Position numbers and translations under genes: made by a program. The notes beneath the pieces are model-generated. The model did no database searches and was not told the origin of the DNA. It saw only the letters and a list, made by a program, of their open reading frames with translations. 64,000 bases of DNA from an uncultured Alphaproteobacteria bacterium (GTDB taxonomy: Bacteria > Pseudomonadota > Alphaproteobacteria > RF32 > CAG-239), in the NCBI GenBank assembly GCA_902464275.1, contig CABQIK010000002.1, positions 80,485 through 144,484 on the forward strand, given 5' to 3'. Below are positions 9,374 through 57,773 of this stretch, piece by piece. Within the stretch, counting starts at the first letter, position 1; each line of letters opens with the position of its first letter.

Positions 9374-9947
9374 TTTCGGACAGCGCTCGCAATTTAAGCT
9401 AATTATTCAGCTGTTTTTCGAGGGTAAAACGGAACTGGATTATTTGCAAAAGTTTATTCGTCAACGCAACAAGAATACATTAATTAGATTAAACAAGATA
9501 TTGATTAACCCTAATCCTCTGACTTTAGCGCAAGAGTCGGTAGAAAAGTTTGATGATTTAAAAATGAATAATTCTGAAGTATGGGTAGTGTTTGATCACG
9601 ATGGTAGAGATACGGAAGTTAGGAACGCTATTGATTATATAAATAAAAGCGGAAAAGATATTCATATAGCCTTTATGAAACCTTGTATTGAAATATGGCC
9701 TCTGATGCATAACGGAATTGATAATGTTACGACACCATCAGCGGCACAATCAAAACTAGAAAGCATTATGCCATCTTATGACCATGATAGAAATCCATAT
9801 TTCGATCTAGATAAAATGCAAAATTATGAAGGTGCGGTGGTAAAAGCAAAACAATGGCAAACGTCATTATCAGGCGATCCGGAATATAATTCTGCCAAAT
9901 ATGCAGGCATTTATAAATTAACTGAAAAAATAGCTGGTGTGGAATAA
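9366..9947 (+). CDS. RloB-family (Toprim-like) protein (AbiLii-like)
   Basis: 193 aa; the start overlaps the upstream stop by 8 nt. FEGKTELDY, VVFDHDGRD and KPCIEIW follow the RloB motif pattern (CEGxxTExxY / D.D / NPCFE.W). Confidence 0.75.
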   Translation: MSNFGQRSQFKLIIQLFFEGKTELDYLQKFIRQRNKNTLIRLNKILINPNPLTLAQESVEKFDDLKMNNSEVWVVFDHDGRDTEVRNAIDYINKSGKDIHIAFMKPCIEIWPLMHNGIDNVTTPSAAQSKLESIMPSYDHDRNPYFDLDKMQNYEGAVVKAKQWQTSLSGDPEYNSAKYAGIYKLTEKIAGVE

Positions 9948-10251
9948 TTTCTGATTTAATTATGGCGGAACTGCCATAATTAAAATCCACAAATCATCAT
10001 ATTTGCCCCGGTTAGTCCATTTTTATTGGACTTTCCGGAGCAAATACAACATTTTATAAAGTAAGTAGAAAAGTAAGGAGAAAAATTAAAACAAGTAAGG
10101 ATAAAAATAACTACCCAGAAAATATTATTTTTTAGTAGTATATCTGCAATCCTCGGGGATATGAAAAATACGAAGATACCGATTTTGAAAGCAATTTTAT
10201 AATTAATATTTGATATGATACGAAAAATAAACTGCTTTTTGAATTTTTATC

Positions 10252-13242: not shown

Positions 13243-13301
13243 AAATACAACTTATGCACAGCACGGACTCGTAAATATTGCAAAAAAAAAACGCGTGATA
13301 A
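13243..13301 (+). promoter_or_regulatory. Pilin-cassette copy 1 (upstream blocks only), in front of a glycosyltransferase gene
   Basis: AATACAACTTATGCACAGCACGGACTCGTAAATATTGCAAAAAAAAAACGCG matches the cassettes at 19741, 31261, 48712, 57681 and 58595. It is followed by TGaTAATAT (an extended -10-like element). Confidence 0.7.
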
Positions 13302-13353
13302 TATTTTTTCAAAAGTAAACATTTTAAGAAAGTTTGTTTCATAGAGAAGTGAA

Positions 13354-14346
13354 ATGCCTAAAATTTCTGTAATTATGCCAGTATATAACACCAAATCTGA
13401 ATATTTTAAAGAAGCGATTCAGAGTATTTTATTGCAAACCTATAATAATTTTGAACTGATAATTGTTGATGACTGCTCAGATAGCTACATCAAAGACATT
13501 GTTTTACAATATAAAGACAATAGAATTTTTTATTATCGCACCGAACGAAATTCAGGAGCCGCAGCAGCAAGAAATTTGGCTATTTCTAAAGCTCGCGGCG
13601 AATTTTTGGCTTTTATGGATTCTGATGATGTCTCTTTGCCAAACAGATTTGAAGAACAGCTTAAGTATTTTCAACAAAATCCTCAAATTGGTTGTTTAGG
13701 TACAAACATTATTACAATAAGCGACACAATAAAAATGAAATTTCCAAAACATTTAAGGGGTACAGATATTGAGCAGTATTTGTTGTTTACCGGGTGTGCA
13801 TTTTGTCAATCAAGCGTTATGTTACGTAGAGAAATACTAGAAAAAAATAATATTAAGTACAATAGTCAATATGTTCCGGCTGAAGATTATGCATTGTGGC
13901 TTGACTTAGTCGGTAAAACAAAATTTGCCATTTTGGATAAGACTTTACTAAAATACCGTTATTATCCTGAAAACATTTCCAACAGACAAAAGTTCTTGCA
14001 AGAAAAGAAATGCGCTGAAGCTCAAATTGCGGCATTAGAAAAGTATTGCGAATTTAAACTTGACAATAAAGATTTATTGTTGTCTTTTTTCTATAAAAAA
14101 AGTTTACCGCTATCTGATTTGCAAGAATTAAATACTACCATAGATGAGTTAATTACAAAAATGAAAATGAATAACGTTTTTACACCTGCCGCTCTTAATA
14201 TTTTTAAGAGAAAATTTAAAAAACTATACTACCATACGCACAGTATAAAAGGGCAATGGCAACTCTTCAATTCACCAATTAACAAATTGCTGAATATTAA
14301 GTTGTCTTGCCGTTTGTTTTGTTTTATTACCAGAGGAATATTATAA
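13354..14346 (+). CDS. Family 2 glycosyltransferase
   Basis: [18 protein letters not shown] and MDSDD motifs. AT-rich. Confidence 0.85.
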
Positions 14347-15311
14347 TGAAAACAATTCTTGTAACCGGAGGGACCGGCTTTCTCGGGTCAAATCTTTGCA
14401 CTCGCCTGATTAATGAAGGCAATCGGGTGATTTGTGTAGATAATAACTACACAGGACGGATGAGCAATGTCAGCTCTATTCTCAATCATCCGAATTTTCG
14501 GTTTATTAAGCATGATGTTTGCAATCCTCTGGACGTTGATGACGAGAAGATTGACCAAATTTATAATATGGCTTGTCCGGCATCTCCTCCGGCTTATCAG
14601 GGCAGTTATTCCATCAAGACCACCAAGACCTGTGTTTTAGGCGCTATCAACATGTTGGAACTGGCTAAAAAACACCACGCCACCATTTTACAAACCTCAA
14701 CTTCTGAAGTTTATGGCGAGCCGTTGGTTCATCCGCAGGTAGAAAGCTATCGCGGCAATGTCAATCCTGATGGTATTCGCGCTTGTTATGATGAGGGCAA
14801 ACGCTGCGCCGAAAGTTTGTTCTTTGACTATTGGCGGCATGAGGGTGTGGATATTAAGGTTATTCGCATTTTTAATACTTACGGTCCCAATATGGATCCA
14901 AATGACGGACGCGTGGTGTCAAACTTTATCTGTCAGGCGCTTTCGGGGCAAGATATTACCATTTATGGCGATGGACACCAGACACGCTCATTTTGCTATG
15001 TTGACGATTTGATTGAAGCCATGATTCGGATGATGAACAGTCCGAAAGACTTTACCGGACCGGTAAACACCGGTAACCCCGGGGAATTTACAATTAAGGA
15101 GTTGGCGGAAATGGTTGTTGCTAAAATCGGCGGAAAATCTAAAGTTGTTTACAAGGATTTACCCTCAGACGACCCAACACAACGCCGTCCTGATATTACT
15201 TTGGCAAAAAACAAACTCGGCTGGGAACCCAAAATTAAACTCAGTGAAGGTTTAGACAGGACTATTGAATATTTCAAAACTCAAATTAATCTATTTAGGA
15301 AGGCTATGTAA
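14346..15311 (+). CDS. UDP-glucuronate decarboxylase (UDP-xylose synthase-type SDR)
   Basis: [16 protein letters not shown] Rossmann motif and YDEGKR catalytic motif. ATG 14346 overlaps the preceding stop (TAATG). Confidence 0.85.
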
Positions 15312-15312
15312 T

Positions 15313-16650
15313 ATGAAAGTAGGAATTATCGGAACAGGTTATGTTGGTTTACCCACCGGCGTTGGTTTGGCTGAACTTGGCAATCAGGTTGTATGTATTG
15401 ACCGCGAGCCGAAAAAAATAGAAGCTTTGCAAGCGGGTAAAATCACTTTGTATGAGGACGGGTTGGAGGACTTGTTCCACAAAAACGTCAAAGAAGGTCG
15501 TCTGCATTTTACAACTTCTATGCAGGAGGGCGTCTCTGATGCTGATTTAGTGATTATTGCAGTTGGCACACCGCCGCATCCGGTCACTAAAGAAGCGGAT
15601 ATGAAGTATATTCACGCTGCTGCAACCGAATTAGCGGAATATTTGACAGGATACACGGTTGTGGCTACCAAATCTACCGTTCCGGTCGGTACCGGCGATG
15701 TGGTTGAAGGGCTGATTGCCAAAAAGAATCCCAAAGCTGATTTTGACGTTGTTTCTTTGCCGGAATTTTTGCGGGAAGGTTTTGCCGTGCATGACTTCTT
15801 CCACCCTGATCGGATTGTCGTTGGCGCCAATACCGAAAAAGCCCGCAATGTTATTAAAGAGCTTTATAAGCCGTTTGAAGGCAAAACCAATATGCTGTTT
15901 GTTAAACGTCGGTCAAGCGAAACTATTAAATATGCTTCAAATGCTTTTTTAGCCATCAAAATCCATTATATTAATGAGATGGCCAATTTCTGCGAGAAAA
16001 CAGGGGCGGATATTACAGAAGTAGCCAAAGGTATGGGCTTGGACAGCCGTATCGGCAATCGTTTCTTGAACCCCGGTCCCGGCTATGGCGGAAGCTGTTT
16101 CCCGAAAGATACAATGGCCATGGCTTATATGGCACGCCAAAATGATGTTGATATGACCTTGATTAAAGCGGCAATTGACGGTAACACCAAACGCAAAAAA
16201 GACATGGCGGAAAGAATTCTTGAGGCGGTTAAAGGAATTGATAATCCGAAAATTGCCGTTCTAGGTCTGGCTTTCAAAGACGGAACCGATGACTGCCGCG
16301 AAAGTCCGGCAATGGAAATTGTCGGCAATCTGCTGGAAACCGGCGCGGATATTACCGCTTATGACCCTAAGGCTATGGAAACAGCCAAGCTCTTGGTCGG
16401 CGACAAGATTACATACGCCGCGGACATGTATGAGGCGCTCAAAGGAGCCGATGTGTTGGCGATTTTGACCGAATGGGGCGAGTTTAAAGAACTGGATTTA
16501 GCCAAAGCCGCCCAACTGATGAAACACAAAACCATTATTGACTGCCGTAATTTAATTGACACTGAACAAGCTGTGAAAAATGGCTTTAGGTATCAAGGAA
16601 TCGGGAAAAAACCGAAACAAAAAGATGATCGTTTGCAGGAGGCTGCATAA
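15313..16650 (+). CDS. ugd: UDP-glucose 6-dehydrogenase
   Basis: MKVGIIGTGYVGL NAD motif and GGSCFPKD catalytic Cys motif. RBS AGGAAGG. ATG 15313 is preferred over the ORF-track start at 15265. Confidence 0.9.
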   Translation: MKVGIIGTGYVGLPTGVGLAELGNQVVCIDREPKKIEALQAGKITLYEDGLEDLFHKNVKEGRLHFTTSMQEGVSDADLVIIAVGTPPHPVTKEADMKYIHAAATELAEYLTGYTVVATKSTVPVGTGDVVEGLIAKKNPKADFDVVSLPEFLREGFAVHDFFHPDRIVVGANTEKARNVIKELYKPFEGKTNMLFVKRRSSETIKYASNAFLAIKIHYINEMANFCEKTGADITEVAKGMGLDSRIGNRFLNPGPGYGGSCFPKDTMAMAYMARQNDVDMTLIKAAIDGNTKRKKDMAERILEAVKGIDNPKIAVLGLAFKDGTDDCRESPAMEIVGNLLETGADITAYDPKAMETAKLLVGDKITYAADMYEALKGADVLAILTEWGEFKELDLAKAAQLMKHKTIIDCRNLIDTEQAVKNGFRYQGIGKKPKQKDDRLQEAA

Positions 16651-16653
16651 AAA

Positions 16654-19600
16654 ATGAATTTTGACTATATTTGTAATCTTAATTTACCGACAGATGAGTA
16701 TGTTTCTGCTTTACAAGATTGGTTTATGAAACAAACTAAAAAGTATTTAAACATAGAAAACCCAACGACATTTAACGAAAAAATACAATGGTTAAAACTT
16801 TACGATTCAACACCATTAAAAGCTCAAACTACAGACAAATACCTCGTAAGAGATTGGGTTAAGAAAAAAATTGGTGAAGAATATCTTATTCCTTTACTAG
16901 GAGTATATAATAGTTTCGATGAGATCGATTTTGATAGTCTTCCAAATAAGTTTGTTATAAAAACAAATCATAGTAGCGGTTGGAATTGTGTCGTGACTAA
17001 CAAGAAGAATATAAATATAGATGAATTACGAGCCAAATTTAATTTATGGCTAAATACTAATTTTGCATTTATGTTTGGCTTTGAACTCCACTATAAAGAT
17101 ATAAAACCAAAAATTATTATTGAAAAATTTATCCAAAATAAATCCGGTATACTCTATGATTACAAATTTTGGTGTTTTAATGGAGAGCCTAAATATATTC
17201 AATTCCGAGATGATTGGAAAGCTGATTTAAAGATGGCTTTTTTTGATACCGAATGGAATAAACAAGAATTTCATTACGACCATCCGTTATATGAAAAAGA
17301 TTTACCAAAACCAGATAATTTATCTGAAATGTTAGACATTGCAAAGAAGTTATGTAAAGGATTTATGTTTGTTTGTGTTGATTTATATCGTTTAGATAAT
17401 GGCAAAATTTATTTTGGAGAAATGACCTATACTCGTTCTTCGGGAATAGCAAATTGGCAACCTGAGGAATGGAACAAAAAACTTGGAGAAATGATTAAAT
17501 TACCAAAAAACAAAGAGGAAATTATGAAAAAATGTAACTACAAAATTACTTATGAACCGAAGATTTCCGTCATAATACCTGTATATAATGTAGAAAAATA
17601 TCTGCCGAGATGCTTGGATTCGGTTATAAATCAAACATTGAAAGATATTGAAATTATCTGCATAAATGATGAATCTCCTGATAAGTGCAATCAAATTTTG
17701 ACAGAATATGCAAAACAAGATAAACGTATTATTGTTTTAAACCAAAAAAACAGCGGACAAGGAAGTGCGCGTAATCGTGGCTTAGAAGTCGCAAAAGGCA
17801 AGTATATCCAATTTTTGGATTCAGACGATTTTTATCAACCAAATTGCTGTGAAGAAATGTATAATATTATGGAAAAATACTCTGATGTGGATGTTGCTTG
17901 CTTTGATACTAATATTATTTACGAATCTTTCGAGGATAAAAAAGAAGAAGATGCATCGTATTTTAAAATGAATTTTTCAGGAATACAAAAAAACAAACCA
18001 AGTATGATTAGAAAATTAGATTGCAATTGTTGGAATAAAATTTTTCGAAAATCTTTTATTGACGAGTATGGTTTACGTTTTCCAGAGAAATTACATTTTG
18101 AAGATGTTGCTTTTTATTGGTTTTGGTTATCAAAATCTAAAAAAATTTATTTTTACAATAAAAAACTCACTAATTATATAAGAAGAAAAGGAAGTTTTCT
18201 AGGCGAAATATACACAAAGTCTAGTACACATATTTTCGAGATGTTTCACGTTTATGAGCTGATTTATACCGATCTTATAAAAAATAAAAAATTTGATAAT
18301 TACAAAGAAATGTTCTTACAACAGTATCTCAACAATTTCCGTTGGTTAAGGAATTGTTTTTCACATAATGTTACCCAAGAAAAGAGAAAATTAATTGACA
18401 AATGTTCAGTTTTTCTACAAACATGTGACATTAATCATTTGGAACTTTCATCTAGCGATAAAAAGTGTTTCGATAATATTATTAGCAAAAACTACTATTA
18501 TTTTGATGCTTATAATAATCATGAAATCGAAGAAGCTTTTCCTGTTTTTCCAAAAGATAGTATCAATATAGTCTTTTCTACTGATAATAATTATATTCCG
18601 TATTTGGCGGTAGCCATTTCTTCTATTATCGAAAATAGTTCGCCGGAGAATAACTATGATATAATTATTTTATATCAAGCTGTTTATGAATATCAAAAAC
18701 GGTTTATTTTATCAATGGTTGAAAAACATCAAAATATTTCTATACGTTTCTTTGATATGACACAATATATTAAAAATTTTGGTCTAGACAAGCTGTGTAC
18801 ACTCAACCATATCACACTATCAGCTTATTTCCGTTTATTTGTAGGGCAAATCTTTACAGAGTATAAGAAAATTTTATATTTAGATTGTGATTTGATAGTT
18901 ACAACTGATATAGCTCAATTATATCACTTAGATATCGGCAATTATCCGATTGCAGCTGCATTAGATACAACCATTAGCCATTCTCTTGTCGTTGGAGGAT
19001 TAAATACCAATGCATGGACAGCTTTTAGAAAATATATGTCAGAAACACTGAATTTTACAAGCCAAACAAAATATTTCAACTCAGGCGTCATGATTATTGA
19101 CATTGAAAAATTTAATGAAATGGATTTAGATTATTTAATCGATTTAGCTCAACGCAACAATAAGTTTTTCCATGATCAAAATGTTTTGAACGCTGCATTT
19201 GAAGGTAATTATTTCGAATTGTCACCAACGTGGAATTTTCAGTGGAATATTAAATTCCATAGTACGGATTATAAGTACGTTTTGTCACCAGATCTTCTTG
19301 CTTTTTATGAAGATCCTAGTATTCAGGCTAACATTGTTCACTACACCTCTCATGAAAAGCCATGGAAAAATCCCCACCATACATTTGCCAATATTTGGTG
19401 GGAGTATGCACGAAAAACGCCTTTTTATGAAATTTTCTTGAAAGATTTAAATTGCAACAAAATGGTGGCATCAGCATCAGACATAAATAAATCTCTTCTG
19501 TTGCAGATTTTATCATATAAAAAAGATAAACGGCGTTATTACCGGTATAAAATTCTTTCCAAAATAACCTTTGGTAATATGCGTAAATATTATAAACAAA

Positions 19601-19665
19601 AAAGAAAAGAACTAAAAGCATATCTTAAAAATATAGAAAGAATTATGAGAAATGAACAATCTTGA
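16654..19665 (+). CDS. Three-domain fusion: TupA-like ATP-grasp + GT2 + GT8 glycosyltransferase
   Basis: 1003 aa. N-terminal PTTFNEKIQWLKLYD (TupA-like ATP-grasp). Central ISVIIPVYN / INDESPD / LDSDD (GT2). C-terminal FSTDNNY / YLDCDLIV / NSGVMII / HYTSHEKPW (GT8). Confidence 0.8.
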   Translation: MNFDYICNLNLPTDEYVSALQDWFMKQTKKYLNIENPTTFNEKIQWLKLYDSTPLKAQTTDKYLVRDWVKKKIGEEYLIPLLGVYNSFDEIDFDSLPNKFVIKTNHSSGWNCVVTNKKNINIDELRAKFNLWLNTNFAFMFGFELHYKDIKPKIIIEKFIQNKSGILYDYKFWCFNGEPKYIQFRDDWKADLKMAFFDTEWNKQEFHYDHPLYEKDLPKPDNLSEMLDIAKKLCKGFMFVCVDLYRLDNGKIYFGEMTYTRSSGIANWQPEEWNKKLGEMIKLPKNKEEIMKKCNYKITYEPKISVIIPVYNVEKYLPRCLDSVINQTLKDIEIICINDESPDKCNQILTEYAKQDKRIIVLNQKNSGQGSARNRGLEVAKGKYIQFLDSDDFYQPNCCEEMYNIMEKYSDVDVACFDTNIIYESFEDKKEEDASYFKMNFSGIQKNKPSMIRKLDCNCWNKIFRKSFIDEYGLRFPEKLHFEDVAFYWFWLSKSKKIYFYNKKLTNYIRRKGSFLGEIYTKSSTHIFEMFHVYELIYTDLIKNKKFDNYKEMFLQQYLNNFRWLRNCFSHNVTQEKRKLIDKCSVFLQTCDINHLELSSSDKKCFDNIISKNYYYFDAYNNHEIEEAFPVFPKDSINIVFSTDNNYIPYLAVAISSIIENSSPENNYDIIILYQAVYEYQKRFILSMVEKHQNISIRFFDMTQYIKNFGLDKLCTLNHITLSAYFRLFVGQIFTEYKKILYLDCDLIVTTDIAQLYHLDIGNYPIAAALDTTISHSLVVGGLNTNAWTAFRKYMSETLNFTSQTKYFNSGVMIIDIEKFNEMDLDYLIDLAQRNNKFFHDQNVLNAAFEGNYFELSPTWNFQWNIKFHSTDYKYVLSPDLLAFYEDPSIQANIVHYTSHEKPWKNPHHTFANIWWEYARKTPFYEIFLKDLNCNKMVASASDINKSLLLQILSYKKDKRRYYRYKILSKITFGNMRKYYKQKRKELKAYLKNIERIMRNEQS

Positions 19666-19740
19666 ATTATATTTTCTCACGCCAAAACTTTCGGCGGTGA
19701 CGGATTGTGATGCAACCACCCCGCCTTCGGCACTTCTTAA

Positions 19741-19861
19741 TAGGGTGAAGTTTTTGCATTGTGCCAATACAACTTATGCACAGCGCTGACTCGTAAATAT
19801 TGCAAAAAAAAAACGCGAGCTAAAATCTTCTCAAACGTAACAATTTGAGGAGATTTTAGCT
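19741..19861 (+). promoter_or_regulatory. Pilin-cassette copy 2 (full length: extended upstream block, A10, -10-like hexamer, SD-burying inverted repeat)
   Basis: TAGGGT..TTTTGCATTGTGCCAATACAACTTATGCACAGCGCTGACTCGTAAATATTGCA(10)CGCGAGCTAAAATCTTCTCAAA-loop-TTTGAGGAGATTTTAGCT, then ATG. Confidence 0.8.
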
Positions 19862-20464
19862 ATGAAATCAGAAAACGGGCGGTCTATGGTGGAAATGCTT
19901 GGCGTTTTAGCAATTATTGGTGTCTTATCGGTCGGCGCGATTGCCGGATACAGCAAGGCGATGATGAAATATCGGCTCAATAAGCAAGCGGACCAACTCA
20001 GCTGGTTATTAAACGTATTATACCGCTATAAAGATATGTTCGGACACAGTAAAGGCTACTTTGTGCCTTACTTAAAAACACTTAATGAAATTCCGCAAGA
20101 GATGATTAAAGCTAATGACAGCCATATTTATGATACTTTCGGATTTTTATACTACATAAATACCGATAACTGCACTGATGAATTTTGCAGAGCATCTACT
20201 CTTCTTATTCAGTCGCCGACTAATTACAAAAATTTTGATGTATGCCATAATATTTTTGAAACAGCCAAAGCCTTTTCTACGCAGCTTTATTATTTTAGTG
20301 CTTGGTCCGGTGAAGCGGGCGGGTTAGATTACCTTTATGGTGATACTTATTGTTCGTCCGTCCGTAAATGTTTAAAAGATTTATCCCAAAATGATATGTA
20401 TGAAATTTGTAAAAACTGTGCCGAAAAAAGCTGTAATTTTTATTTTAAGTATGAAATTAAATAA
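19862..20464 (+). CDS. Prepilin-type (class III signal peptide) pilin-like protein, paralogue 1
   Basis: 200 aa. MKSENG-RSMVEMLGVLAIIGVLSVGAIAGY has Gly-1 and Glu+5 followed by a hydrophobic helix. Conserved VCHNIFETAKA core and C-terminal Cys pairs. Confidence 0.8.
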   Translation: MKSENGRSMVEMLGVLAIIGVLSVGAIAGYSKAMMKYRLNKQADQLSWLLNVLYRYKDMFGHSKGYFVPYLKTLNEIPQEMIKANDSHIYDTFGFLYYINTDNCTDEFCRASTLLIQSPTNYKNFDVCHNIFETAKAFSTQLYYFSAWSGEAGGLDYLYGDTYCSSVRKCLKDLSQNDMYEICKNCAEKSCNFYFKYEIK

Positions 20465-24544: not shown

Positions 24545-25237
24545 ATGACAGAAAAAAATACAGCAGAGATTAAAAAAACTGATATTAAAGCCAGCTGCTT
24601 AAAAACACTCAAGAAATTTACAGCCTTCTTAAAAGCGGATATTAAAGGCAGCGATTTCAAAACGCTCAAAGGTCTTATAACCGCTTTACGTTATTTGTTG
24701 TATATCGTGCTTTATGCTAAATTTTTGTATATGATGAATATTTTAACTCATGACACATTGGATACAGATTTTTATGAGGCGTGTGTTCCTGTCGGCTTTT
24801 TTAACATTTATTCGGCGGAACCTGTTACCTATTTTACCATTTTCAGCTTTTTAGAAAGCTACGCGCATGTAAATCTTGCCGGAGATATGCATTTATGCCT
24901 GCCAAGCGCGTATTATTTTGTGGTTTTGGCATGGTATTTTCTTTTGTTTTATACCGCATTTAAAATCTTGTCATTTTGCGTATTGTGGAAAAAATTACCT
25001 TGGAAGTATGTAATTTTAGAAATTTGCGGATTGATAATTTGTCTTTCATATCATGACTTTATGGTTTTAATTCAATATGGAAGATACGGCTTAATTCCGT
25101 TTTACCTGCTCGGGACTATAATTTGCACATTTTATATGTGGGTATTTTTACTGATAGGTTGGGCGATATTAAAATTCATCGGTTATATATATCATTTGCT
25201 TGTAGCACCGCTGATCAGCCGGCTTAGAAGTAAATAG
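24545..25237 (+). CDS. Polytopic membrane protein, tandem paralogue A
   Basis: 230 aa with ~5 hydrophobic segments. The C-terminal 44 aa are identical to paralogue B. Confidence 0.7.
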   Translation: MTEKNTAEIKKTDIKASCLKTLKKFTAFLKADIKGSDFKTLKGLITALRYLLYIVLYAKFLYMMNILTHDTLDTDFYEACVPVGFFNIYSAEPVTYFTIFSFLESYAHVNLAGDMHLCLPSAYYFVVLAWYFLLFYTAFKILSFCVLWKKLPWKYVILEICGLIICLSYHDFMVLIQYGRYGLIPFYLLGTIICTFYMWVFLLIGWAILKFIGYIYHLLVAPLISRLRSK

Positions 25238-25275: not shown

Positions 25276-25842
25276 ATGACAGAAGAAAACAAAGATAATA
25301 ACAGATTAAAAACGCGCCAAGAGTTTATAACCGTTTTACATTATTTATTGTATATCGTGCTTTACGGCGCTTTTGTGTATATAATATTAAGTTTAAATCA
25401 TGACGATTTTATAGATTGGCATGCGACGTGTACTTCTGTCGGCAGTTTTAACATTAATTCAGCAGACCCAATCACCGACTTTACCATTTTCAGTTTTTTA
25501 GATAACACTGCAAACTTAAATTTCGCAGGAGAGATACATTTATGCTTACCGAAAATGTTCGGATTTATGCTTTTAGTTTGGTATTTTTTTGTATTGTATA
25601 TGATATTTAAAACCTTATCATTTTCTATGTTGCCACCCCAAAAGCGGCGAATGTTTGACATTTTAGAAATTTGCGGATTGATAATTTGTCTTTCGTATCA
25701 TGATTTTATGGTTTTAATTCAATACGGAAGATACGGTTTAATTCCGTTTTATCTGCTCGGGACTATAATTTGCACTTTTTATATGTGGGTAATAATGCTG
25801 TTAAGGTGGATAATATTTAAATTGTTTGCCAAACACTATTGA
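25276..25842 (+). CDS. Polytopic membrane protein, tandem paralogue B
   Basis: 188 aa. Shares YLLYIVLY... and ILEICGLIICLSYHDFMVLIQYGRYGLIPFYLLGTIICTFYMWV with paralogue A. Confidence 0.7.
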   Translation: MTEENKDNNRLKTRQEFITVLHYLLYIVLYGAFVYIILSLNHDDFIDWHATCTSVGSFNINSADPITDFTIFSFLDNTANLNFAGEIHLCLPKMFGFMLLVWYFFVLYMIFKTLSFSMLPPQKRRMFDILEICGLIICLSYHDFMVLIQYGRYGLIPFYLLGTIICTFYMWVIMLLRWIIFKLFAKHY

Positions 25843-29061: not shown

Positions 29062-31185
29062 ATGAAAATGTTAAAGCCGTCTAAACTTTTACTTTTTTCT
29101 TTGATAACAGCCGTTATCACCGGACTTGCCGGGTTTGACGGCGTTTCGGCAGCCTCACGGCAGTCGGCTTACACCGTGCGCGATATGATGGCGCGCCGCG
29201 GTCGTCCGCCCAAGAGCGTGACCAAGCCCGCCAAACGCACCACTCCTAAAGTTATCCGCAAATCGGCCGCGGAAGGCTCTTATACCAATGTCGGAACCAG
29301 TAATGCCGCCGGTTTTGAACAAACCGTATTGCTTAACAAAGACGGGAGCTTGTTTCCGGGCGGTCCGTGCGTTGAGTGCCAAACCGGTCCGATTGATAAA
29401 GACGGCAGTTTGTTTCCGGGCGGCTCCTGTGTAAATTGTCAGACCGGCCCGCTCATTGACACCGGCCCCTGCATTGATTGTCAGACCGGCCCGCTTATTG
29501 ACACCGGTCCGTGCGTAAACTGCGAAAAGCCCAAACCGCTTATTGCCAATTATGCCATTCCTTATACTCCGTATATTTATCAGTCGGTGGAGCGTAATTG
29601 CTGCGCCATGGCTCCGCTTTATTTGGAACATGTTGACTTTAACCTTGCCAATGTGCCGAATAACGGACCGGAAAAACTCGGTAATTATCGTTTCAGAATT
29701 TTCGGGTGCCGCCGTTATGATAAAGAAGCCATATTAAACCGCGGTCGCATAATGGAAAAAGATATGAACTTCTCGCAAATTTTTGAAGAAGTTACCGGCG
29801 ATTGCTACAATCTGGTTAAAATGCCTGATGATTTGTGCCTGCAAACCACTCCTTCTCCGTTGCCTGAATATATTTTAACTGCGGAAATCACCAACTTCTT
29901 TATGAACGTGTGCGACGGTTATGACTGGCAAGACGTTCAAAAGCAAAACGCGCGCACCGGTTCGGCTGAAATGACGGTTACGTGGCGCTTGACCAACCTT
30001 ACCAAGACCAAAGTTTTGTGGGAAGGGCAAACCACCGGTTACAGCGACTTAGACAACGGCGCTGCCAATGGCGAAATTAAGCTAGTGGAAGACGCTTTTG
30101 CCGATGCCGCAAGCAATTTAAGCACCATGCCGGGATTTGAAGATCAGCTTATGGTTCGCTTAACGCCGGAAGAATTAACCGAACAGCGCAACGCCTTAAT
30201 TGATGAAGAAATTGCCTTAAATCCGGCCAAATGCCGTTTTGAGGAAGAGCTTACTCAGGTTAAAAACTGCGAAATAAGCCGTCCGGAAAGCGATATTAAC
30301 CAATGCCCGGCTTATATTGAGCAAAAATCAGGCGTGGTTTCAGATTATGAATTGTTTGATAATGTGGTGGTTGAAAACAGCGGCGTTGTTTCAGACGGCG
30401 ATTGCGCCAAAGTTGACGACACTTGGGTTGACATGCAGCAAAACACCACTTCATTTGACAGTCTGTGCATTGTTGACAGACCTCCGTATGAAACATTAAG
30501 TCCCGAAAATTTATATAAAGTCAGAGCCTCTGTGGTTGAAATTAACGGTAACGCCGGTAAAAAAGGCGCCGGTCTGATTATTTCAGAGTCGTTTGTTTTA
30601 ACTTCAGCCGATTTGGTTGATAAAACTAACAATCATTACCAAATTAAAACCATTAACGGCAAAGAGCTGACCGGTCATGCGGTACGCGTAAATCCGGCTA
30701 AAAACATTGCGTTGATTATGCTGGATACACCTACCGAATATACCCCGCTTTCATTGAATTTAGACTTGCCGAAAGTAAACCAAAGCGGCTTTATGGTGCT
30801 TGGCGTGCTTGACGTGCCGACTTTCAGCGATGGCGAAAACTACATTGACAACAGCGGTAAAGTTGCCGGATACCGTTATTCGGAAGACAAAGGTTCAGAA
30901 ATCATGATGAACACTTTTGTACAAAATGTTACCATCGGCGGCATTTTGATTGATGCCAACGGTACCGTTAACGGGGTGGCTCATTCCGGTAAAAAGACTG
31001 ACAGCGGTATGGATTTGTTCCTGCCAACCGAAACCGCTTTGCGCAGCGTCGGGCTCTCAATTTGTGAAAAACTTTACGCCAAACCGAGTCCGTGGCAGCA
31101 AACGGTTTATAAACCGGTGACCGAAAAAATTATGGCTCCGGCGCCTAAAGCTCCTGAAGCCATGAAAGAAAAAGACCGCAAATAA
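29062..31185 (+). CDS. Secreted protein: Cys-rich CxxCQTGP repeats + central domain + trypsin-like C-terminal domain that appears to lack the catalytic triad
   Basis: 707 aa with a signal peptide. The C-terminal GAGLIISESFVLTSADLV / KNIALIML / VTIGGILID aligns by eye with the TxAHV / DIALL / GDSGGP positions, with H, D and S all replaced. Confidence 0.6.
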   Translation: MKMLKPSKLLLFSLITAVITGLAGFDGVSAASRQSAYTVRDMMARRGRPPKSVTKPAKRTTPKVIRKSAAEGSYTNVGTSNAAGFEQTVLLNKDGSLFPGGPCVECQTGPIDKDGSLFPGGSCVNCQTGPLIDTGPCIDCQTGPLIDTGPCVNCEKPKPLIANYAIPYTPYIYQSVERNCCAMAPLYLEHVDFNLANVPNNGPEKLGNYRFRIFGCRRYDKEAILNRGRIMEKDMNFSQIFEEVTGDCYNLVKMPDDLCLQTTPSPLPEYILTAEITNFFMNVCDGYDWQDVQKQNARTGSAEMTVTWRLTNLTKTKVLWEGQTTGYSDLDNGAANGEIKLVEDAFADAASNLSTMPGFEDQLMVRLTPEELTEQRNALIDEEIALNPAKCRFEEELTQVKNCEISRPESDINQCPAYIEQKSGVVSDYELFDNVVVENSGVVSDGDCAKVDDTWVDMQQNTTSFDSLCIVDRPPYETLSPENLYKVRASVVEINGNAGKKGAGLIISESFVLTSADLVDKTNNHYQIKTINGKELTGHAVRVNPAKNIALIMLDTPTEYTPLSLNLDLPKVNQSGFMVLGVLDVPTFSDGENYIDNSGKVAGYRYSEDKGSEIMMNTFVQNVTIGGILIDANGTVNGVAHSGKKTDSGMDLFLPTETALRSVGLSICEKLYAKPSPWQQTVYKPVTEKIMAPAPKAPEAMKEKDRK
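29338..29523 (+). repeat. In-frame degenerate tandem repeats encoding Cys-rich units
   Basis: KDGSLFPGGxCVxCQTGPID occurs twice, followed by TGPC(I/V)(D/N)C(Q/E).. units. Confidence 0.8.
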
Positions 31186-31260: not shown

Positions 31261-31380
31261 TAGGGTTTATTTTGCATTGTGCCAATACAACTTATGCACA
31301 GCGCTGACTCGTAAATATTGCAAAAAAAAAACGCGAGATAAAATCTTCTCAAAACTAACTTTTTGAGAGGATTTTAGCTC
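31261..31380 (+). promoter_or_regulatory. Pilin-cassette copy 3 (full length)
   Basis: Same blocks as copy 2. Inverted repeat GAGATAAAATCTTCTCAAAA / TTTTGAGAGGATTTTAGCTC abuts the ATG at 31381. Confidence 0.8.
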
Positions 31381-32016
31381 ATGTATACACAATCCGGAAG
31401 AAGTATGGTTGAGATGCTCGGAGTTCTGGCGATTATCGGGGTGCTGTCAGTTGGCGCTATTGCCGGTTACGGAAAAGCTATGTTCAAGTACAAACTTAAC
31501 AAACAAACCGAACAATTAAATCAGGTTATCGGTGCCATCGTGCGCTATAAAAGCAGTTTACTGCTTAATCCCAATCCGGCGGATGATACCAATCTAAGCG
31601 ACTTTCAATTAGTGTCATTACTTAAAAAGCTCGGTGAAATTCCAAAAGAGATGTATACATCCAGTGATGTATACATCAAAGATGCTTTCGGCACTCAATA
31701 TTATGTTTATAATCGTAACACTCATAAGAACATGGTTTTTTTACGAACTCGTAGCATGGATCGTAATGACAGCTCTTTTCAGATTTGTAAAAATTTATAC
31801 TTAATCGCCAAAGAATGGCACCAAGAATTACATTCTATACGTGTTGCAGCTTATAAAGGCGATGATTTTGACAGCCAAGGAACATATTGCGGCGATAACA
31901 CTCTAAATTCATATTGTTTTAAACGCATTAAAGATTTACGATTAACCGACCTTGACGATATTTGCCGAACCGCCGCTGAAGAGCAAGGCTCATATTCGGT
32001 TATGTTATATTTTTAA
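31381..32016 (+). CDS. Prepilin-type pilin-like protein, paralogue 2
   Basis: 211 aa. MYTQSG-RSMVEMLGVLAIIGVLSVGAIAGY, plus the ICKNLYLIAKE core and C-terminal Cys residues. Confidence 0.8.
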   Translation: MYTQSGRSMVEMLGVLAIIGVLSVGAIAGYGKAMFKYKLNKQTEQLNQVIGAIVRYKSSLLLNPNPADDTNLSDFQLVSLLKKLGEIPKEMYTSSDVYIKDAFGTQYYVYNRNTHKNMVFLRTRSMDRNDSSFQICKNLYLIAKEWHQELHSIRVAAYKGDDFDSQGTYCGDNTLNSYCFKRIKDLRLTDLDDICRTAAEEQGSYSVMLYF

Positions 32017-43560: not shown

Positions 43561-43775
43561 GGTTACACCCTAAATTTTATTGTATTTTAGGCGGTTATAG
43601 TATATGATGCTTAACAAAGCAAGCAATTTTTACACTTAAAATTTTATTTTTAAAAATATAAAAATATTTTTCGCTAAAATTTGCATTTTTTGACAAAAAA
43701 GCTATTGAAAATCAAAATATTTTATTGTATACTGCGAACAATCAGAAACTTTTTTACACACGGGAGTGCTTAATT

Positions 43776-46700
43776 ATGGCAAAGAACGCTAAAGTTAAAA
43801 TGGATTTGAATGAAGCTGTTACGATTTTGCAGGGTGAAACTATCGCCAAAGCAAAAGGCGCGGACGGCTATTCGGCGGCAGAAGTAAAAGAGGCATTAAA
43901 GATTGTTAAAGCGCAAGATCCGGACAATCAGGTTTTGTATCAGTATATGCTTATTACCGTGTTTCAACCGGTTAAAGCGCAAGATCCGGACAATCAGGTT
44001 TTGCATGTTTATAATGAACAGGCTAAAAATGCCCAAAATACCGCGGGCAAAACAAATGCCGAAACAACTTCTAAAACCGGTAAAAAAACCGGCGCCAAAA
44101 AAGCGGCTAAACCTGCTAAAAGCGCAAACAAAGCTCAGGTTTTGCGTTCTGATGCTTCCGACAATAAAAAACCGGATTTTAACGAGGCCGTCACCATTTT
44201 GCAAGGCGAGGCTATTGCCAGAGCCAAAGGCGCAGAAGGTTTTTCAAAGGCTGAAGTTGAAGAAGCTCTTAAAATTGTTAAGGAGCAAGACCCTGACAAT
44301 AAGGTATTAAACATTTACATGCAACAAGCAAAAAATGCCGAAAAAGCCGAGAGTATCCCTGTAAAAAATGAAAATTCCGCTGATAAAAAGGCTGAAAATA
44401 AAAAGGCTGAAAACAAGCTTGAAAACGTTTCTGCGCAAAATGCCGAAAATCGGCAGGTTTTGCGTCCGGTTCCTCCGGCAGAGTCCATGAGCTTAGACGA
44501 GGCGGTTGCCATTTTGCAAGGCGAGGCTATCGCGGCCTTAAACGGCGCCGACGGATTTTCGCAAAGCAAAATTCAGGAAGCCTTGAAAGTTGTGCAGGAT
44601 AAAGACCCGAATCATCCGGCTTTAAAAGCTTATCAGGAACAGCTTGCCAACTTTGAAAAAGCCAACAAGCTGCAATCAAACAATCCGGTAATTTACGCGC
44701 AAAACTCAGAAGACACTGACTTTACGCTCAGAGGCTACACTTTTGATAAGTTTACCGAAAGCTCTGAAAATGACGACATTCGCGAATATATTGGCAATAC
44801 GGAGCTTACTGACAGCGTCAGCGGCAAAGTTTTGGAAGCTCAGGAACGCAAAGATTATCTTAACCTGATTTTTGAAGGCGCTAAGTTAAAAACCGAAACC
44901 TCATTAATAGGTGATGAAAAGTACGCCAAATTAAGCAATGCCCAGAAAATTAAGACGATTAAAGCAGAGCTTAAAACTATTTTCTTTGCTGACTTTGCCC
45001 GCACTGCCATTGCGTCAGATTTAGAAAAGCCAACCACTTTGGAGCAACGTATCGGCTCTAAAGAATATAAAGATTATATTCTGCGTCAATCACAAAAAGC
45101 TTCGGGCATTATGCAAAAAATTGTCAGCGGCGGTCAAAAGATTAAAATTAAAACCGACGCCATTTTGGCTTCATGCGCCGATACCGCGGCTCAGACCGAA
45201 CAATATATTAAAGGCCTGAGATTAAAAGCTCAGCAAGCTGTTGCGCAAGCTTCGCAATCGGCTAAAAACGGAGCGCAAAAAGCTTCAGACAATATACGTA
45301 ATGATTTTAACAAAATAGCCGACCGCTTGCAGAAACATAAAAACAATTTTGAGCAGCTGGCTAACAATGTTTCAAAAAATCGTTATCAAATTTTCAAGAA
45401 TATTAAAGGAAGTTTCAGTGATAACAAAATTAAATTGTTTGGCAATGTTGCCGCTAACGCCGCATTCGGTTATGTGACGGCGGCTGCCGCTTCCGGCGCG
45501 GTTGCCGGCGCAGCTGCTCCGGTATTGGTTCCGGCCGTTGCCGCTTATGCGGTATATCATGCCGCCGGTTCATTGGTATATCCGGTTGTGGCGGAAATTC
45601 GCAAAATCAACCGTCAAAAACGAGAAGCCGGTGAAGCGACCTTGCCGTTTATGCAAGCCTTAAAGCAAGCTTGGAAAAATAAAACCGAGTCTCGTAAAAA
45701 CAGACGCACCTATATTGTCAGCGTCTTAATCAACACCGCTGTTGCCGCCGGTGGTTTTGCATGGTTGAAAGACGGTTTGGAAGCCGCCGATGCCGCCGCA
45801 GCGTTGACTGACGGAGTTAAAGACGGCTTGAACGTTACTTTAGCATCCAGCATTGCCGAAACTCGTCATGCTATCAGTATGGGACGCGCAGGCGCCGCCA
45901 CCATGGCGCAGTTAGCAGATGCAGGTGTTGCTTACGGCGTTTCAGTTGCCGACCCGCAAAACTTAGAGAAAAAAGCCGAGGCTAAACAAACCGCGATTGC
46001 CGCTTTGATCGGTATGGGCTTAAACGCCGCCGCTCAGGGCTTGAGTTCGGCATTGCAAAATATTAACACCGCTAACGGCGAAATATCAGATGTGCTCTCA
46101 TCAGATAATGGCACCCCTGCTCCGGTTAACAATCCGGTTAATGACGATGGAATTGTAAATCCGGTAACCGGCGCTCCGGTTAACAATCCGGAAGCAAATG
46201 ATGTTGCCCCCGCTCCGAGTGCAGGCGATAATGTTACTGATATTGCCGACACCACTAATGACGCCTCTGTTGCTCCTAAACCAAACTTTGTTAAAGGTTT
46301 GTGGAATAAGTGGTTTGGCGGCAGAAGTAATGATGAAGCCCCTTCAACCCCGATTGTCGGCGACGGCAGAAACCCTGACGGAAGTTGGCAGGTTTCAGAC
46401 GGAAACGGCGATGCCGTTAATATTGTGGATAATGGCGGCAACGCAGGCGATGTTGATGTTGCAACCAATGGCGGAAATGTTCCTGCCGGTTTATTCCCGA
46501 GAGAATATAATCAGGATATGGGCATCAGCCAAAGAGAATATAACACTTTGGTTAATACCACTGAAGGCACGCTTAAAGCCGCAACCGGCGAAGAAGTTAC
46601 TTTGGACAGAGCTTACAGCAATCTCAGCGGCTCTATGGATCAATTTAAAGGCAGAACCGAAGAAGAAATTATGTACAAATATAACCGCTTGTATGCCTTT

Positions 46701-47459
46701 ATGCGTAAGGCTTACAGCGTTGGGGACGGAACCTTGCGCGAAACCCCGTCAGGCAGCGAGTATTTAACTTCTCGTTTCAGCAACATTAATATTCCTGGCA
46801 TGAATGAAGATAAAATGTCGCAGTTGGTTGATTTTGCTAAGGATAACACCTATGCAAACAAAGCTGAACTTAAAGAAGGACTAAATAAACTCTTCCCTGA
46901 AGGGTTAAGCAACAAAGATATGACAGCATTGATTACAACTATTCACAGCAACCAACGCTTTAACCAATACCAGTCTGAAATGGAAGCCTTAACCAAACTG
47001 CTTGGTTGCGGTGAAAAAATCAGCAATGAAGATGCTTTGGCTATCAACAAAATGTTAGATAATACCGACGCTTTGCTCGCAACCGGTAAAGCTCACACTC
47101 AGTTGACCGGTTTGAGCCTGGCTAAAGATTGCAACGATGATGACGGAGAATGGATACGCGTTGCTGTTCAGCCGAAAGAAGTTCCGCTTCCGGAAACTCC
47201 TGAACTTGGCGATGCCGAATTACCTGATGACGAGATTGTAATTGCCGCTGCTCCGCAAATGCAGTTGCAACCGGATGAAGGTTTGCAGGTTGAACCGATG
47301 GCTGCTCCAACTGAACAACCGCAAGACGGCGTTGAAAAAATTGTCGGTGATAAAATGTCACAAGTCAGAGGCGAAAACGAACCCGATTATCGCAAGCCGG
47401 TATCGGATAGAAAAGCCGCCCGCTTATTGAAGAGAATTAACAGCGGTTCTCGTGAATAA
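43776..47459 (+). CDS. Large (1227 aa) repeat-containing membrane-associated protein, unknown function
   Basis: ATG 43776 with RBS GGGAG is preferred over 43725. Three ~45-aa modules (NEAVTILQGExIA.AKGA.G(Y/F)S.AEV.EALKIVK.QDPDN.VL). Ala-rich hydrophobic segments mid-protein. Acidic, Pro-rich C-terminus. Confidence 0.75.
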   Translation: MAKNAKVKMDLNEAVTILQGETIAKAKGADGYSAAEVKEALKIVKAQDPDNQVLYQYMLITVFQPVKAQDPDNQVLHVYNEQAKNAQNTAGKTNAETTSKTGKKTGAKKAAKPAKSANKAQVLRSDASDNKKPDFNEAVTILQGEAIARAKGAEGFSKAEVEEALKIVKEQDPDNKVLNIYMQQAKNAEKAESIPVKNENSADKKAENKKAENKLENVSAQNAENRQVLRPVPPAESMSLDEAVAILQGEAIAALNGADGFSQSKIQEALKVVQDKDPNHPALKAYQEQLANFEKANKLQSNNPVIYAQNSEDTDFTLRGYTFDKFTESSENDDIREYIGNTELTDSVSGKVLEAQERKDYLNLIFEGAKLKTETSLIGDEKYAKLSNAQKIKTIKAELKTIFFADFARTAIASDLEKPTTLEQRIGSKEYKDYILRQSQKASGIMQKIVSGGQKIKIKTDAILASCADTAAQTEQYIKGLRLKAQQAVAQASQSAKNGAQKASDNIRNDFNKIADRLQKHKNNFEQLANNVSKNRYQIFKNIKGSFSDNKIKLFGNVAANAAFGYVTAAAASGAVAGAAAPVLVPAVAAYAVYHAAGSLVYPVVAEIRKINRQKREAGEATLPFMQALKQAWKNKTESRKNRRTYIVSVLINTAVAAGGFAWLKDGLEAADAAAALTDGVKDGLNVTLASSIAETRHAISMGRAGAATMAQLADAGVAYGVSVADPQNLEKKAEAKQTAIAALIGMGLNAAAQGLSSALQNINTANGEISDVLSSDNGTPAPVNNPVNDDGIVNPVTGAPVNNPEANDVAPAPSAGDNVTDIADTTNDASVAPKPNFVKGLWNKWFGGRSNDEAPSTPIVGDGRNPDGSWQVSDGNGDAVNIVDNGGNAGDVDVATNGGNVPAGLFPREYNQDMGISQREYNTLVNTTEGTLKAATGEEVTLDRAYSNLSGSMDQFKGRTEEEIMYKYNRLYAFMRKAYSVGDGTLRETPSGSEYLTSRFSNINIPGMNEDKMSQLVDFAKDNTYANKAELKEGLNKLFPEGLSNKDMTALITTIHSNQRFNQYQSEMEALTKLLGCGEKISNEDALAINKMLDNTDALLATGKAHTQLTGLSLAKDCNDDDGEWIRVAVQPKEVPLPETPELGDAELPDDEIVIAAAPQMQLQPDEGLQVEPMAAPTEQPQDGVEKIVGDKMSQVRGENEPDYRKPVSDRKAARLLKRINSGSRE
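43905..44003 (+). repeat. Perfect 33-bp direct repeat (43905-43937 and 43971-44003) separated by 33 nt, inside the CDS
   Basis: GTTAAAGCGCAAGATCCGGACAATCAGGTTTTG occurs twice. It encodes VKAQDPDNQVL twice, with YQYMLITVFQP in between. Confidence 0.9.
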
Positions 47460-48711: not shown

Positions 48712-48810
48712 AAATACAACTTATACACAGCACGGACTCGTAAATATTGCAAAAAAAAAAGCGCGAGCTAAAATCTTCTCAAAACTAACTTTTTGAGAGG
48801 ATTTTAGCTC
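48712..48810 (+). promoter_or_regulatory. Pilin-cassette copy 4
   Basis: AAATACAACTTATACACAGCACGGACTCGTAAATATTGCA(10)GCGCGAGCTAAAAT... The 20-bp inverted repeat 48765-48784 / 48791-48810 has one G-U position and abuts the ATG. Confidence 0.8.
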
Positions 48811-57680: not shown

Positions 57681-57770
57681 AATACAACTTATGCACAACA
57701 TAGACTCGTAAATATTGCAAAAAAAAAACGGCGTCTATAATGTTTTATTATAGCACTTTAGAGAGGATTT
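57681..57770 (+). promoter_or_regulatory. Pilin-cassette copy 5 (divergent 3' part)
   Basis: AATACAACTTATGCACAACATAGACTCGTAAATATTGCA(10)CGGCGTCTATAATGTTTTATTATAG. A TATAAT at the same offset lies inside a different 7-bp hairpin. SD GAGAGGA. Confidence 0.75.
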
Positions 57771-57773
57771 TTG

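Follow-up and report, generated by a model that had tools for sequence, protein, structure and literature searches.

A stretch of 64,000 nucleotides from an uncultured gut Alphaproteobacteria bacterium (contig CABQIK010000002.1, positions 80,485–144,484; hereafter the window) contains six copies of a non-coding cassette that the original prediction had placed in front of pilin-like genes. Analysis of this cassette in the window and beyond reveals a module of approximately 115 bases that, in several uncultured gut Alphaproteobacteria, precedes dozens of genes for pilus subunits together with a few others related to the surface, and that is most likely a shared promoter plus leader held unchanged by selection. 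With somewhat better than even confidence, we take it to be a portable sigma-70-type promoter and leader module that would define the surface/pilus regulon of one gut Alphaproteobacteria lineage. From the comparative data we infer promoter activity, a start site, a dedicated factor and a role for a hairpin in the leader.

The cassette and the genes it precedes

The 26-mer that forms the center of the cassette, GACTCGTAAATATTGCAAAAAAAAAA, occurs six times on the forward strand of the window without a single mismatch (at 13266, 19788, 31306, 48735, 57703 and 58616), as originally predicted; no match is found in 100 shuffles and none is expected by chance. The predicted flanks, ACAACTTAT(G/A)CACA followed by a 5-nt variable window and the 26-mer, were borne out both by MAFFT alignment and by a repeat finder (family D4). 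The alignment also recovers the approximately 30 additional upstream bases common to copies 2 and 3, and a TAnnAT hexamer (TAAAAT in four copies, TATAAT and TAATAT in one each) does lie 15 nt past TTGCAA, or 16 nt in copy 4. The variable window reads GCACG in two copies, GCGCT in two, and ACATA and CCCCG in the remaining ones. The full order is (A)TACAACTTAT(G/A)CACA, the 5-nt variable window, the 26-mer, usually CGCGAGC, TAnnAT, about 35 nt and the start codon. The copies, with the parts of the focal copy 2, are the following:

19767–19861, + strand: cassette copy 2 (focal), which starts with ATACAACTTAT and stops one base short of the ATG of the pilin-like gene 19862–20464
19767–19782, + strand: upstream conserved block ATACAACTTAT(G/A)CACA, from the conservation profile of about 108 copies
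19783–19787, + strand: variable 5-nt window, GCGCT in copy 2
19788–19799, + strand: GACTCGTAAATA block, with GACTC (a GANTC site) 7 nt upstream of TTGC
19800–19805, + strand: proposed −35 hexamer TTGCAA, invariant in all canonical copies
19804–19813, + strand: A10 tract, giving with CGCGAGC (19814–19820) the 15-nt spacer
19821–19826, + strand: proposed −10 hexamer TAAAAT
19818–19861, + strand: leader inverted repeat (5' arm 19818–19835, loop 19836–19843, 3' arm 19844–19861)
13245–13353, + strand: cassette copy 1, upstream of the GT2/UDP-sugar operon 13354–19665; TAATAT at 13299–13304; non-canonical leader
31285–31380, + strand: cassette copy 3, upstream of the pilin-like gene 31381–32016; TAAAAT at 31339–31344
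48714–48810, + strand: cassette copy 4, upstream of the gene 48811–49581; an extra G past the A-run gives a 16-nt spacer
57682–57773, + strand: cassette copy 5, start of the pilin-like gene at 57771/57774; TATAAT at 57736–57741; without SD-pairing hairpin (SD, Shine-Dalgarno sequence)
58595–58689, + strand: cassette copy 6, upstream of the pilin-like gene 58690–59352; TAAAAT at 58649–58654

The left boundary of the upstream block ATACAACTTAT(G/A)CACA is sharp, sequences to the left of it being unrelated between copies. If transcription starts 7 nt past TAAAAT, the block occupies about −67 to −52, and we propose it as a putative factor-binding site. The 5-nt window next to it shows 21 variants, mostly related by transitions, with GCACG in about half of the copies, and differs between orthologous copies. 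An orthologue of copy 2 in another species is found at L023:3699.

The cassette had been said to precede every pilin-like gene, and this holds for all five pilin-like open reading frames (ORFs) of the window, but copy 1 (13266) stands before a GT2 operon. The four genes of this operon encode a GT2 glycosyltransferase, a homologue of NAD-dependent sugar-nucleotide dehydratases/epimerases, a UDP-glucose 6-dehydrogenase and a 1003-residue multi-domain glycosyltransferase. In the pilin-like genes the motif G|RSMVEMLGVLAIIGVLSVGAI is invariant and the features of a class III signal peptide (G−1, E+5, hydrophobic helix) are all present. Pfam N_methyl scores 16 bits on the pilin, below its cut-off of 21, and an AlphaFold model of the protein (pLDDT 83.7) matches TcpA, CofA and longus with a Foldseek probability of 1.0 and TM scores of 0.58–0.61. 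Judging from this model, the downstream proteins are type IVb-like pilins. The pilin family is very large, with at least 7,910 database relatives among 8,000 candidates scored, and in the window there is one such gene per 10–13 kb.

A scan for an exact 24-mer in one genome per species identified at least 115 further copies on at least 95 stretches, from four species of uncultured gut Alphaproteobacteria represented by metagenome-assembled genomes (MAGs). The downstream gene is readable for approximately 102 copies. It is pilin-like with a leader of 5–6 residues in 41 of them and pilin-like with leaders of 25–91 residues in 48; the remaining copies precede GT2 genes, Cys-rich proteins with a signal peptide, a 674-residue protein or, when truncated, no gene at all. 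The downstream genes are non-homologous; about 89 encode type IVb-like pilins. Conversely, the exact cassette lies upstream of 67 of the 67 pilin-like genes that have enough upstream sequence in the fetched loci. It always has the same orientation, pointing at the gene. The interpretation as a signal for a surface-protein regulon is largely right, with the amendment that the cassette also fronts non-pilin genes. No association was seen between the variant of the 5-mer and the class of the downstream gene.

Searches elsewhere were negative: a metagenome-wide scan with the degenerate motif GACTC-N3-B-N3-TTGCA8 returned only chance matches from unrelated environments, none of them adjoining a pilin gene; the plasmid and phage collections contain no match to the cassette; Rfam at gathering thresholds gives no match in the window, with sub-threshold hairpin noise around copy 4; and a literature search on the pilins of this lineage or on the cassette found nothing. 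At least 37 cassette copies lie on contigs of one of the four MAGs, CAVBCV01 (e.g., L023, L054, L068), deposited as 'Lachnospiraceae bacterium'. This assembly is syntenic with the alphaproteobacterial window at 86–91% nucleotide identity, and the bin appears to be mislabelled. Three truncated cassettes (L066:744, L075:4085 and, on the minus strand, L039:7998) end exactly after the A-run and drive no gene. Their A-run abuts an unrelated GC-rich hairpin plus T-run that terminates a convergent gene, and thereby also serves as upstream arm in a bidirectional terminator.

The statement that the downstream genes begin with nearly the same peptide requires a correction for copy 4, whose gene has a leader of 60 codons (48811–48990) before GRSMVEML. 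This leader consists of palindromic modules and folds at −55 kcal/mol (z −4.1). Long leaders of this kind (25–91 residues; the copy 4 gene and 47 genes in L001–L095) are tandem palindromic DNA modules translated in frame, and one hairpin type is found in both orientations, with the loop TCAAG or CTTGA and peptides such as LDYRVKPDND/LDTPVKPECD and SLSDLIGESR/SYSGLTRISR. Compensation is complete in at least four variants of the stem (TTATCGGG/CCCGATAA, CACTCCGG/CCGGAGTG, CCATCGGG/CCCGATGG and TATTCGGG/CCCGAATA), which indicates selection on the hairpin and not on the peptide. Nevertheless, 48 of about 51 long leaders are open and in frame, and the modules are confined to pilin leaders. Inserted in frame as they are, they resemble REPIN doublets or the palindromic elements of Rickettsia.

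Constraint versus recent copying

Near-identity between dispersed copies may result from constraint on the nucleotides or from recent duplication, and the original prediction had argued for the former from synonymous differences in the adjacent genes. In 73 pilin-linked copies, the 24 codons starting at the G of GRSMVE encode an almost invariant peptide with every synonymous codon in use. The Arg-Ser difference first noticed between two genes extends to the whole set (Arg as CGG in 31 and AGA in 25, Ser as TCT in 35 and AGT in 24), and the Gly codon is GGT, GGA, GGG or GGC in 30, 27, 10 and 6 copies, respectively. The mean pairwise identity at third codon positions of the pilin N-terminus is 0.46, against 0.91 over the 60-nt cassette core, and nearly all differences between cassettes fall at six free positions, i.e. 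R (G in 58 copies, A in 50) and the 5-mer. The cassette is therefore far more conserved than the synonymous sites of the adjacent coding sequence, which is the opposite of the outcome named beforehand as the one that would speak for simple duplication.

Comparison between species leads in the same direction. Housekeeping orthologues of the window species and the MAG species differ at 20–31% of third codon positions (identity 0.69–0.80). In four orthologous cassette pairs (copy 2/L023, copy 3/L054, copy 5/L022 and copy 5/L068), none of 156 comparisons at the 39 constrained positions shows a difference, whereas 11 of 24 (46%) at the free positions do, and the DNA upstream of TACAAC is unalignable. 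The variants of R and of the 5-mer and the variant CGCGGAG are each present in all four species. It follows that the copies are older than the species split, and the divergence of the free positions together with these trans-specific variants argues against simple homogenization. The alignments thus show, as far as comparative data can, that the identity of the cassette is due to purifying selection.

The contrary explanation is that the cassette has no regulatory function, its identity being due to the spread of a mobile element, gene conversion or recombination, and that the repeat merely travels with pilin genes. Many contigs do break at the cassette, the frequencies of its variants differ somewhat between species, and an element resembling a miniature inverted-repeat transposable element (MITE), with terminal inverted repeats, lies next to or inside about a third of the copies. 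There is also a recombination breakpoint within a cassette: L107:1427 and the copy at 58616 of the window precede the same pilin protein and leader, but the upstream gene differs (zeta-toxin-like instead of the pilin gene at 57771), as do the R base and the 5-mer. The cassette is thus a substrate for recombination. Nevertheless, the cassette always faces its gene in one direction, is itself free of terminal inverted repeats and target duplications, shows trans-specific polymorphisms and is without match in the plasmid and phage collections; in addition, its embedded free positions diverge while the 39 constrained ones do not, and conversion would homogenize both. We therefore consider a non-functional repeat very improbable.

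The MITE-like element itself lies directly upstream of about a third of the cassettes, in a short form of about 55 nt or a long form of 230–280 nt, with AATTCCC..GGGGTGGT and ACCACCCC..GGGGAATT as terminal inverted repeats. An 18–20-nt direct duplication of ATACAACTTATGCACAGC borders the element in at least seven cases, as though the cassette's variable 5-mer had been the point of insertion, and a complete copy of the cassette remains intact downstream of it. The occurrences are:

L040:894–977, L008:5033–5115, L076:2081–2174, L078:57–290, L025:7650–7955, L082:5376–5649 and L035(−):883: MITE-like element
19700–19745 of the window, inverted: MITE fragment

Promoter type and the leader inverted repeat

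Two promoter readings had been left side by side in the original prediction, a sigma-70-type one and one of the extracytoplasmic function (ECF) type; the former, with TTGCAA, a short spacer, TAAAAT and an upstream site, fits the comparative data better, and the latter fits them worse. In the sigma-70-type reading, the housekeeping RNA polymerase would use TTGCAA as −35 and TAAAAT as −10, separated by an unusually short, A-tract-rich spacer of 15 nt. Transcription would start at A residues about 7 nt past TAAAAT and produce a leader of about 35 nt that is unstructured and has a strong SD. The invariant 33 nt upstream of the −35 (ATACAACTTATRCACA-N5-GACTCGTAAATA, approximately −67 to −36) most likely bind a dedicated activator or other factor, which would make up for the sub-optimal spacer of a core promoter that is deliberately weak, and would control all members together.

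The hexamers agree well with this reading. TTGCAA matches TTGACA at four of six positions with TTG intact, and is retained in the cassettes of a sister clade and in the diverged relatives described below. The downstream hexamer is TAAAAT in 102 copies, TAATAT in three, TACAAT in two, and TAGAAT and TATAAT in one each, so that variation is limited to positions 3 and 4, the tolerant ones of a −10, and T1, A2, A5 and T6 are kept in 109 of 111 copies. This pattern persists in spite of unrelated leaders (TATAAT in copy 5, TAATAT in copy 1, TACAAT in L071 and L081), and copies 1 and 5, although without a hairpin, keep everything up to the −10. The cassette often begins directly after the terminator hairpin of the upstream gene.

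The spacer measures 15 nt in 87 copies, 14 in 15, 16 in six and 17 in one, mostly short of the 17 ± 1 nt looked for. The spacing of TTGnnn/TAnnnT pairs was also determined in 242 upstream regions of the same clade that lack the cassette; it peaks at 16–17 nt (18 and 19 hits, against about 3–4 after shuffling) and has a shoulder at 15 nt (10 hits). This is thus the native promoter grammar, in which 15 nt is short but used. The sister clade (GCA_017464685, GCA_017408505 and relatives) has cassettes of its own, GACTC-N7-TTGC-A(n)-CG...TATGAT, in which even the GACTC of the GACTCGTAAATA block is kept and the distance from TTGC to the hexamer is held at 20–21 nt despite a different make-up (A11–12 plus a 5-nt GC block, against A10 plus 7 nt in the present clade). 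Two types, B1 and B2 (L096, L098, L231–L237), were distinguished there, both GACTC-N7-TTGC-A(9–12)-CGGTT-TATGAT; in L231 a B2 and a B1 cassette are divergent around 9750–9950, and B2 is also found upstream of non-pilin genes. Finally, a diverged relative of the cassette precedes orthologous 194-residue genes for a nitroreductase/SagB-like protein with a signal peptide in two species (L084:2964 and L077:3210). It has lost AAC, CGT, GACTC and the A-run but keeps TTATGCACA, TATTGCAA, a 16-nt spacer and TA(A/C)AAT, in the layout TTATGCACA-N17-TTGCAA-N16-TA(A/C)AAT.

A feature overlooked in the original prediction is an inverted repeat of 14–19 bp whose 5' arm includes the −10 hexamer and whose 3' arm holds the SD (in copy 2, GAGGAG at 19847–19852). 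In most copies, GAGCTAAAATCTTCTCAAA pairs with TTTGAG(A/G)(G/A)GATTTTAGCTC across a loop of 8–10 nt, which buries the SD and extends the pairing up to the ATG. The predicted folding energy of copies 2 and 3 is −23.6 kcal/mol (z −6.7 in copy 2; −6.7 to −8.6 over the two) and that of copy 6 is −11.8, and copies 1 and 5 have no such structure; the 44-nt leader by itself is unstructured (−2.7 kcal/mol). Among 91 distinct copies, pairing holds in about 97% of cells for the inner 14 pairs and in about half for the outer five. Length and sequence of the loop vary freely, which argues against a palindrome bound by a protein. The variable columns have U opposite A or G, whichever the partner, and since U pairs with both purines, shuffles reach the observed pairing (14/500 and 17/500), so that covariation is not significant. 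The stem present in most copies, which might belong to an SD-sequestering leader or RNA thermometer, has no match in Rfam. If the promoter is of the sigma-70 type, the 5' arm, which overlaps the −10 and the bases next to it, precedes the start. Only RNA that reads through from upstream, or is initiated there, would then form the stem; in such RNA the stem would block the ribosome-binding site and silence it, so that translation would be confined to transcripts begun at the cassette's own promoter.

Several observations weigh against the sigma-70-type reading. The 15-nt spacer (14 nt in 15 copies) is under the 16–17-nt optimum of the same genomes, a sister-clade copy with A9 would have a spacer of 12 nt, and a generic promoter scan does not call the cassette site. 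Nearly all of about 60 nt are conserved, which is far beyond the needs of RNA polymerase itself. Moreover, CTTCTCAAA, just past the −10, is conserved and complementary to the SD, with many changes compatible with U·G pairs, a pattern most easily explained if it is transcribed, and hence if the start lies upstream of TAAAAT. The main rival is a promoter in the upstream block for an ECF-type or other alternative sigma factor, with CAACTT as −35, CGTAAA as −10 and transcription beginning close to TTGCA. Both the A-tract and the whole hairpin would in that case belong to a 5' untranslated region (UTR) of about 85 nt, and the stem of −12 to −30 kcal/mol would sequester the ribosome-binding site as a strong translational lock on every transcript. 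AAC and CGT are indeed invariant in all canonical copies, with the variable 5-mer inside the would-be spacer. The hairpin is very stable, far beyond shuffled sequences (−23.6 kcal/mol, z −6.7 to −8.6), about 97% of cells maintain its inner 14 pairs, the changes being mostly C-to-U or A-to-G ones that preserve pairing in plus-strand RNA, and the anti-SD/SD pairing is retained in the diverged leaders of L084 and L077; the variation from A9 to A12 in the sister clade would also be easier to tolerate in a UTR. AAC and CGT are usually 16–17 nt apart in ECF promoters, but here the gap is 18 nt, or 19 in three copies. Type B2 lacks CGT, and L077 lacks both AAC and CGT, yet both retain TTGCAA and a −10-like hexamer; in a second pilin clade AACTTAT is so close to the start codon, at about 25 nt, that it cannot act as a −35. 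An ECF promoter also fails to account for the T-A-x-x-A-T pattern of substitutions and for the constant TTGC-to-hexamer distance, the SD-pairing hairpin is missing in copies 1 and 5, and its covariation is not significant against shuffle controls. We thus regard both the ECF promoter and the translational control attached to it as doubtful; the conflict over the role of the hairpin is the main reason why our confidence in the sigma-70-type promoter is only a little better than even.

The A-tract invites a further reading, in which slipped-strand mispairing would set the spacer and switch individual pilin genes on (16–17 nt) or off (14–15 nt). The homopolymer of 9–12 A lies exactly in the proposed spacer and its length differs among paralogues (A9 in 15, A10 in 101, A11 in four and A12 in one), the sister clade has A9, A11 and A12 within identical flanks, and there is a precedent in the spacer-length changes that switch vlp, maa2 and vmm (PMC2268961). 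On the other hand, A10 is found in nine of nine orthologous loci from other samples, the tract is equal in four of five cross-assembly orthologous pairs and one sister-clade locus has A11 in all four assemblies, these lengths being read from consensus assemblies and thus giving the population consensus, in which rare switching would not show. The sharp mode at A10 and the total spacing conserved across clades point to selection for one length. A slippage switch like that of vlp is not supported by these alignments, and we rate phase variation as quite improbable. Least probable of all, in our view, is an antisense terminator, in which the A-run and the hairpin, read on the opposite strand, would stop antisense transcription into the pilin 5' end. 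The minus strand does present a 19-bp stem followed by GCG and T10, and the three truncated copies (L066:744, L075:4085, L039:7998−) abut an unrelated hairpin that ends a convergent gene. However, a terminator scan does not call the site, because 3 nt separate the stem from the T-run, copies 1 and 5 have no stem, no convergent gene is consistently found downstream, and the conservation upstream of the A-run would be unexplained.

Two other promoter classes were tried and rejected. Sigma-54 promoters, which are common for pilin genes, have GG-N10-GC (TGGCAC-N5-TTGCA); the cassette has TTGCA, but with the nearest GG 13 nt and TGCAC 18 nt upstream of it the spacing is wrong. GcrA/CcrM promoters carry a methylatable GANTC (YGAKTCK) at about −20/−30 or at +5 to +30 of the start (PMC4647560, PMC9976885), and the conserved GACTC would be at about −45 for a sigma-70-type and about −14 for an ECF promoter, outside the working positions of GcrA boxes. 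GANTC occurs 1109 times against about 2317 expected, an under-representation no stronger than that of other palindromic 5-mers; GACTC as the site of a methylation-sensitive factor is at most a tentative lead.

In the window and L001–L095 (630 kb), GATC is found 366 times against about 2,300 expected from base composition, and CTNAG, like GANTC, is about two-fold under-represented; the scarcity of the three motifs suggests restriction-modification pressure. A further pilin clade (JGI sample 3300010163, GCA_037193785) has another conserved upstream signal, (G/A)AACTTATT(G/A)TGAAATGTTAGGAGAT, directly before the start codon (L097:9700–10010, L228:100–180, L229:8760–9000, L230:1–310), preceded by REP-like palindromes (GTCATCGCGAGGAGCGGAGCGACGA...), and some of the pilin genes concerned have tandemly repeated leaders. 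Elsewhere in the window, 24545–25237 and 25276–25842 are adjacent paralogous genes that form a tandem duplication with a period of 647–650 nt and 74–88% identity (families D6, D7, D9). The ORF 29062–31185, with a trypsin-like domain, contains Cys-rich internal tandem repeats of 60 and 42 nt (at 29320–29504), and the ORF 43725–47459 (1244 residues), without Pfam match, contains internal tandem repeats of about 310–370 nt (at 43810–44533).

Comparison with known systems

The cassette provides a ready-made cis-regulatory handle on uncultured, poorly understood gut Alphaproteobacteria that devote a striking share of their coding capacity to pilins. It defines a likely regulon from sequence alone, comprising the pilins, a candidate glycosylation operon and secreted Cys-rich proteins, and with its help regulon members may be found in MAGs, the cognate factor sought and the expression of pilins followed in metatranscriptomes. 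As a natural example of identity between dispersed non-coding copies that results from purifying selection and not from recent duplication, it is unusually clean. A more far-reaching and rather improbable idea is a var-like system, in which dozens of dispersed type IVb-like pilin genes of a gut commensal, all with the same activator-dependent, deliberately sub-optimal promoter, would be expressed one or a few at a time, owing to a limiting factor, rare slippage or recombination at the cassette, with the SD hairpin silencing read-through. If true, it would amount to programmed antigenic or adhesin variation of a pilus, by a mechanism not so far known from Alphaproteobacteria.

The kind of cassette is already known, namely the shared or 'mobile' promoters of multigene families, and no new mechanism is involved. 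Putative mobile promoters (PMPs), as described by Matus-Garcia, Nijveen & van Passel (2012), are near-identical sequences of at least 50 nt before non-homologous genes, also across related species (PMC3575422). The cassette falls under their operational definition, which asks for an identity of at least 80% across 50 nt or more in front of non-paralogous genes, and like them it corresponds to no Rfam family and no known mobile element (PMC3575422). The PMP survey mostly found pairs and left open the choice between selection and recent duplication (PMC3575422), whereas the present family is far larger (at least 115 copies, four MAGs) and dominated by one paralogous gene family, so that the question can be answered here, in favor of selection. 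In Mycoplasma hyorhinis vlp and its relatives, each surface-lipoprotein gene has a conserved promoter with a homopolymeric tract in the −35/−10 spacer (PMC2268961). The cassette shares with vlp the multigene family of surface proteins, the conserved promoter of each gene and the spacer homopolymer, but its tract is shorter (A10) and lacks length hypervariability at orthologous loci, its genes are dispersed among housekeeping genes instead of clustered, and they encode type IVb-like pilins.

Promoters of type IVb pilin genes, such as tcpA with ToxT and bfpA with PerA, are activator-dependent, and AraC-type activators bind directly upstream of the −35. The TcpA/CofA fold encoded downstream and the conserved block directly upstream of the cassette −35 recall these promoters, the latter likeness being one of position only; unlike them, the cassette serves dozens of independent pilin genes and not one operon. 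With ECF promoters it has in common AAC and CGT with a partly variable spacer, but the spacing of 18 nt differs and the two motifs are lost in copies that retain TTGCAA/TAnAAT. As a dispersed short repeat, accompanied by real MITE- and REPIN-like elements, it resembles the promoter-bearing MITEs (Correia, ERIC, REPIN), from which it is distinguished by its single orientation and by the absence of terminal inverted repeats and target duplications, features that the adjacent MITE does have.

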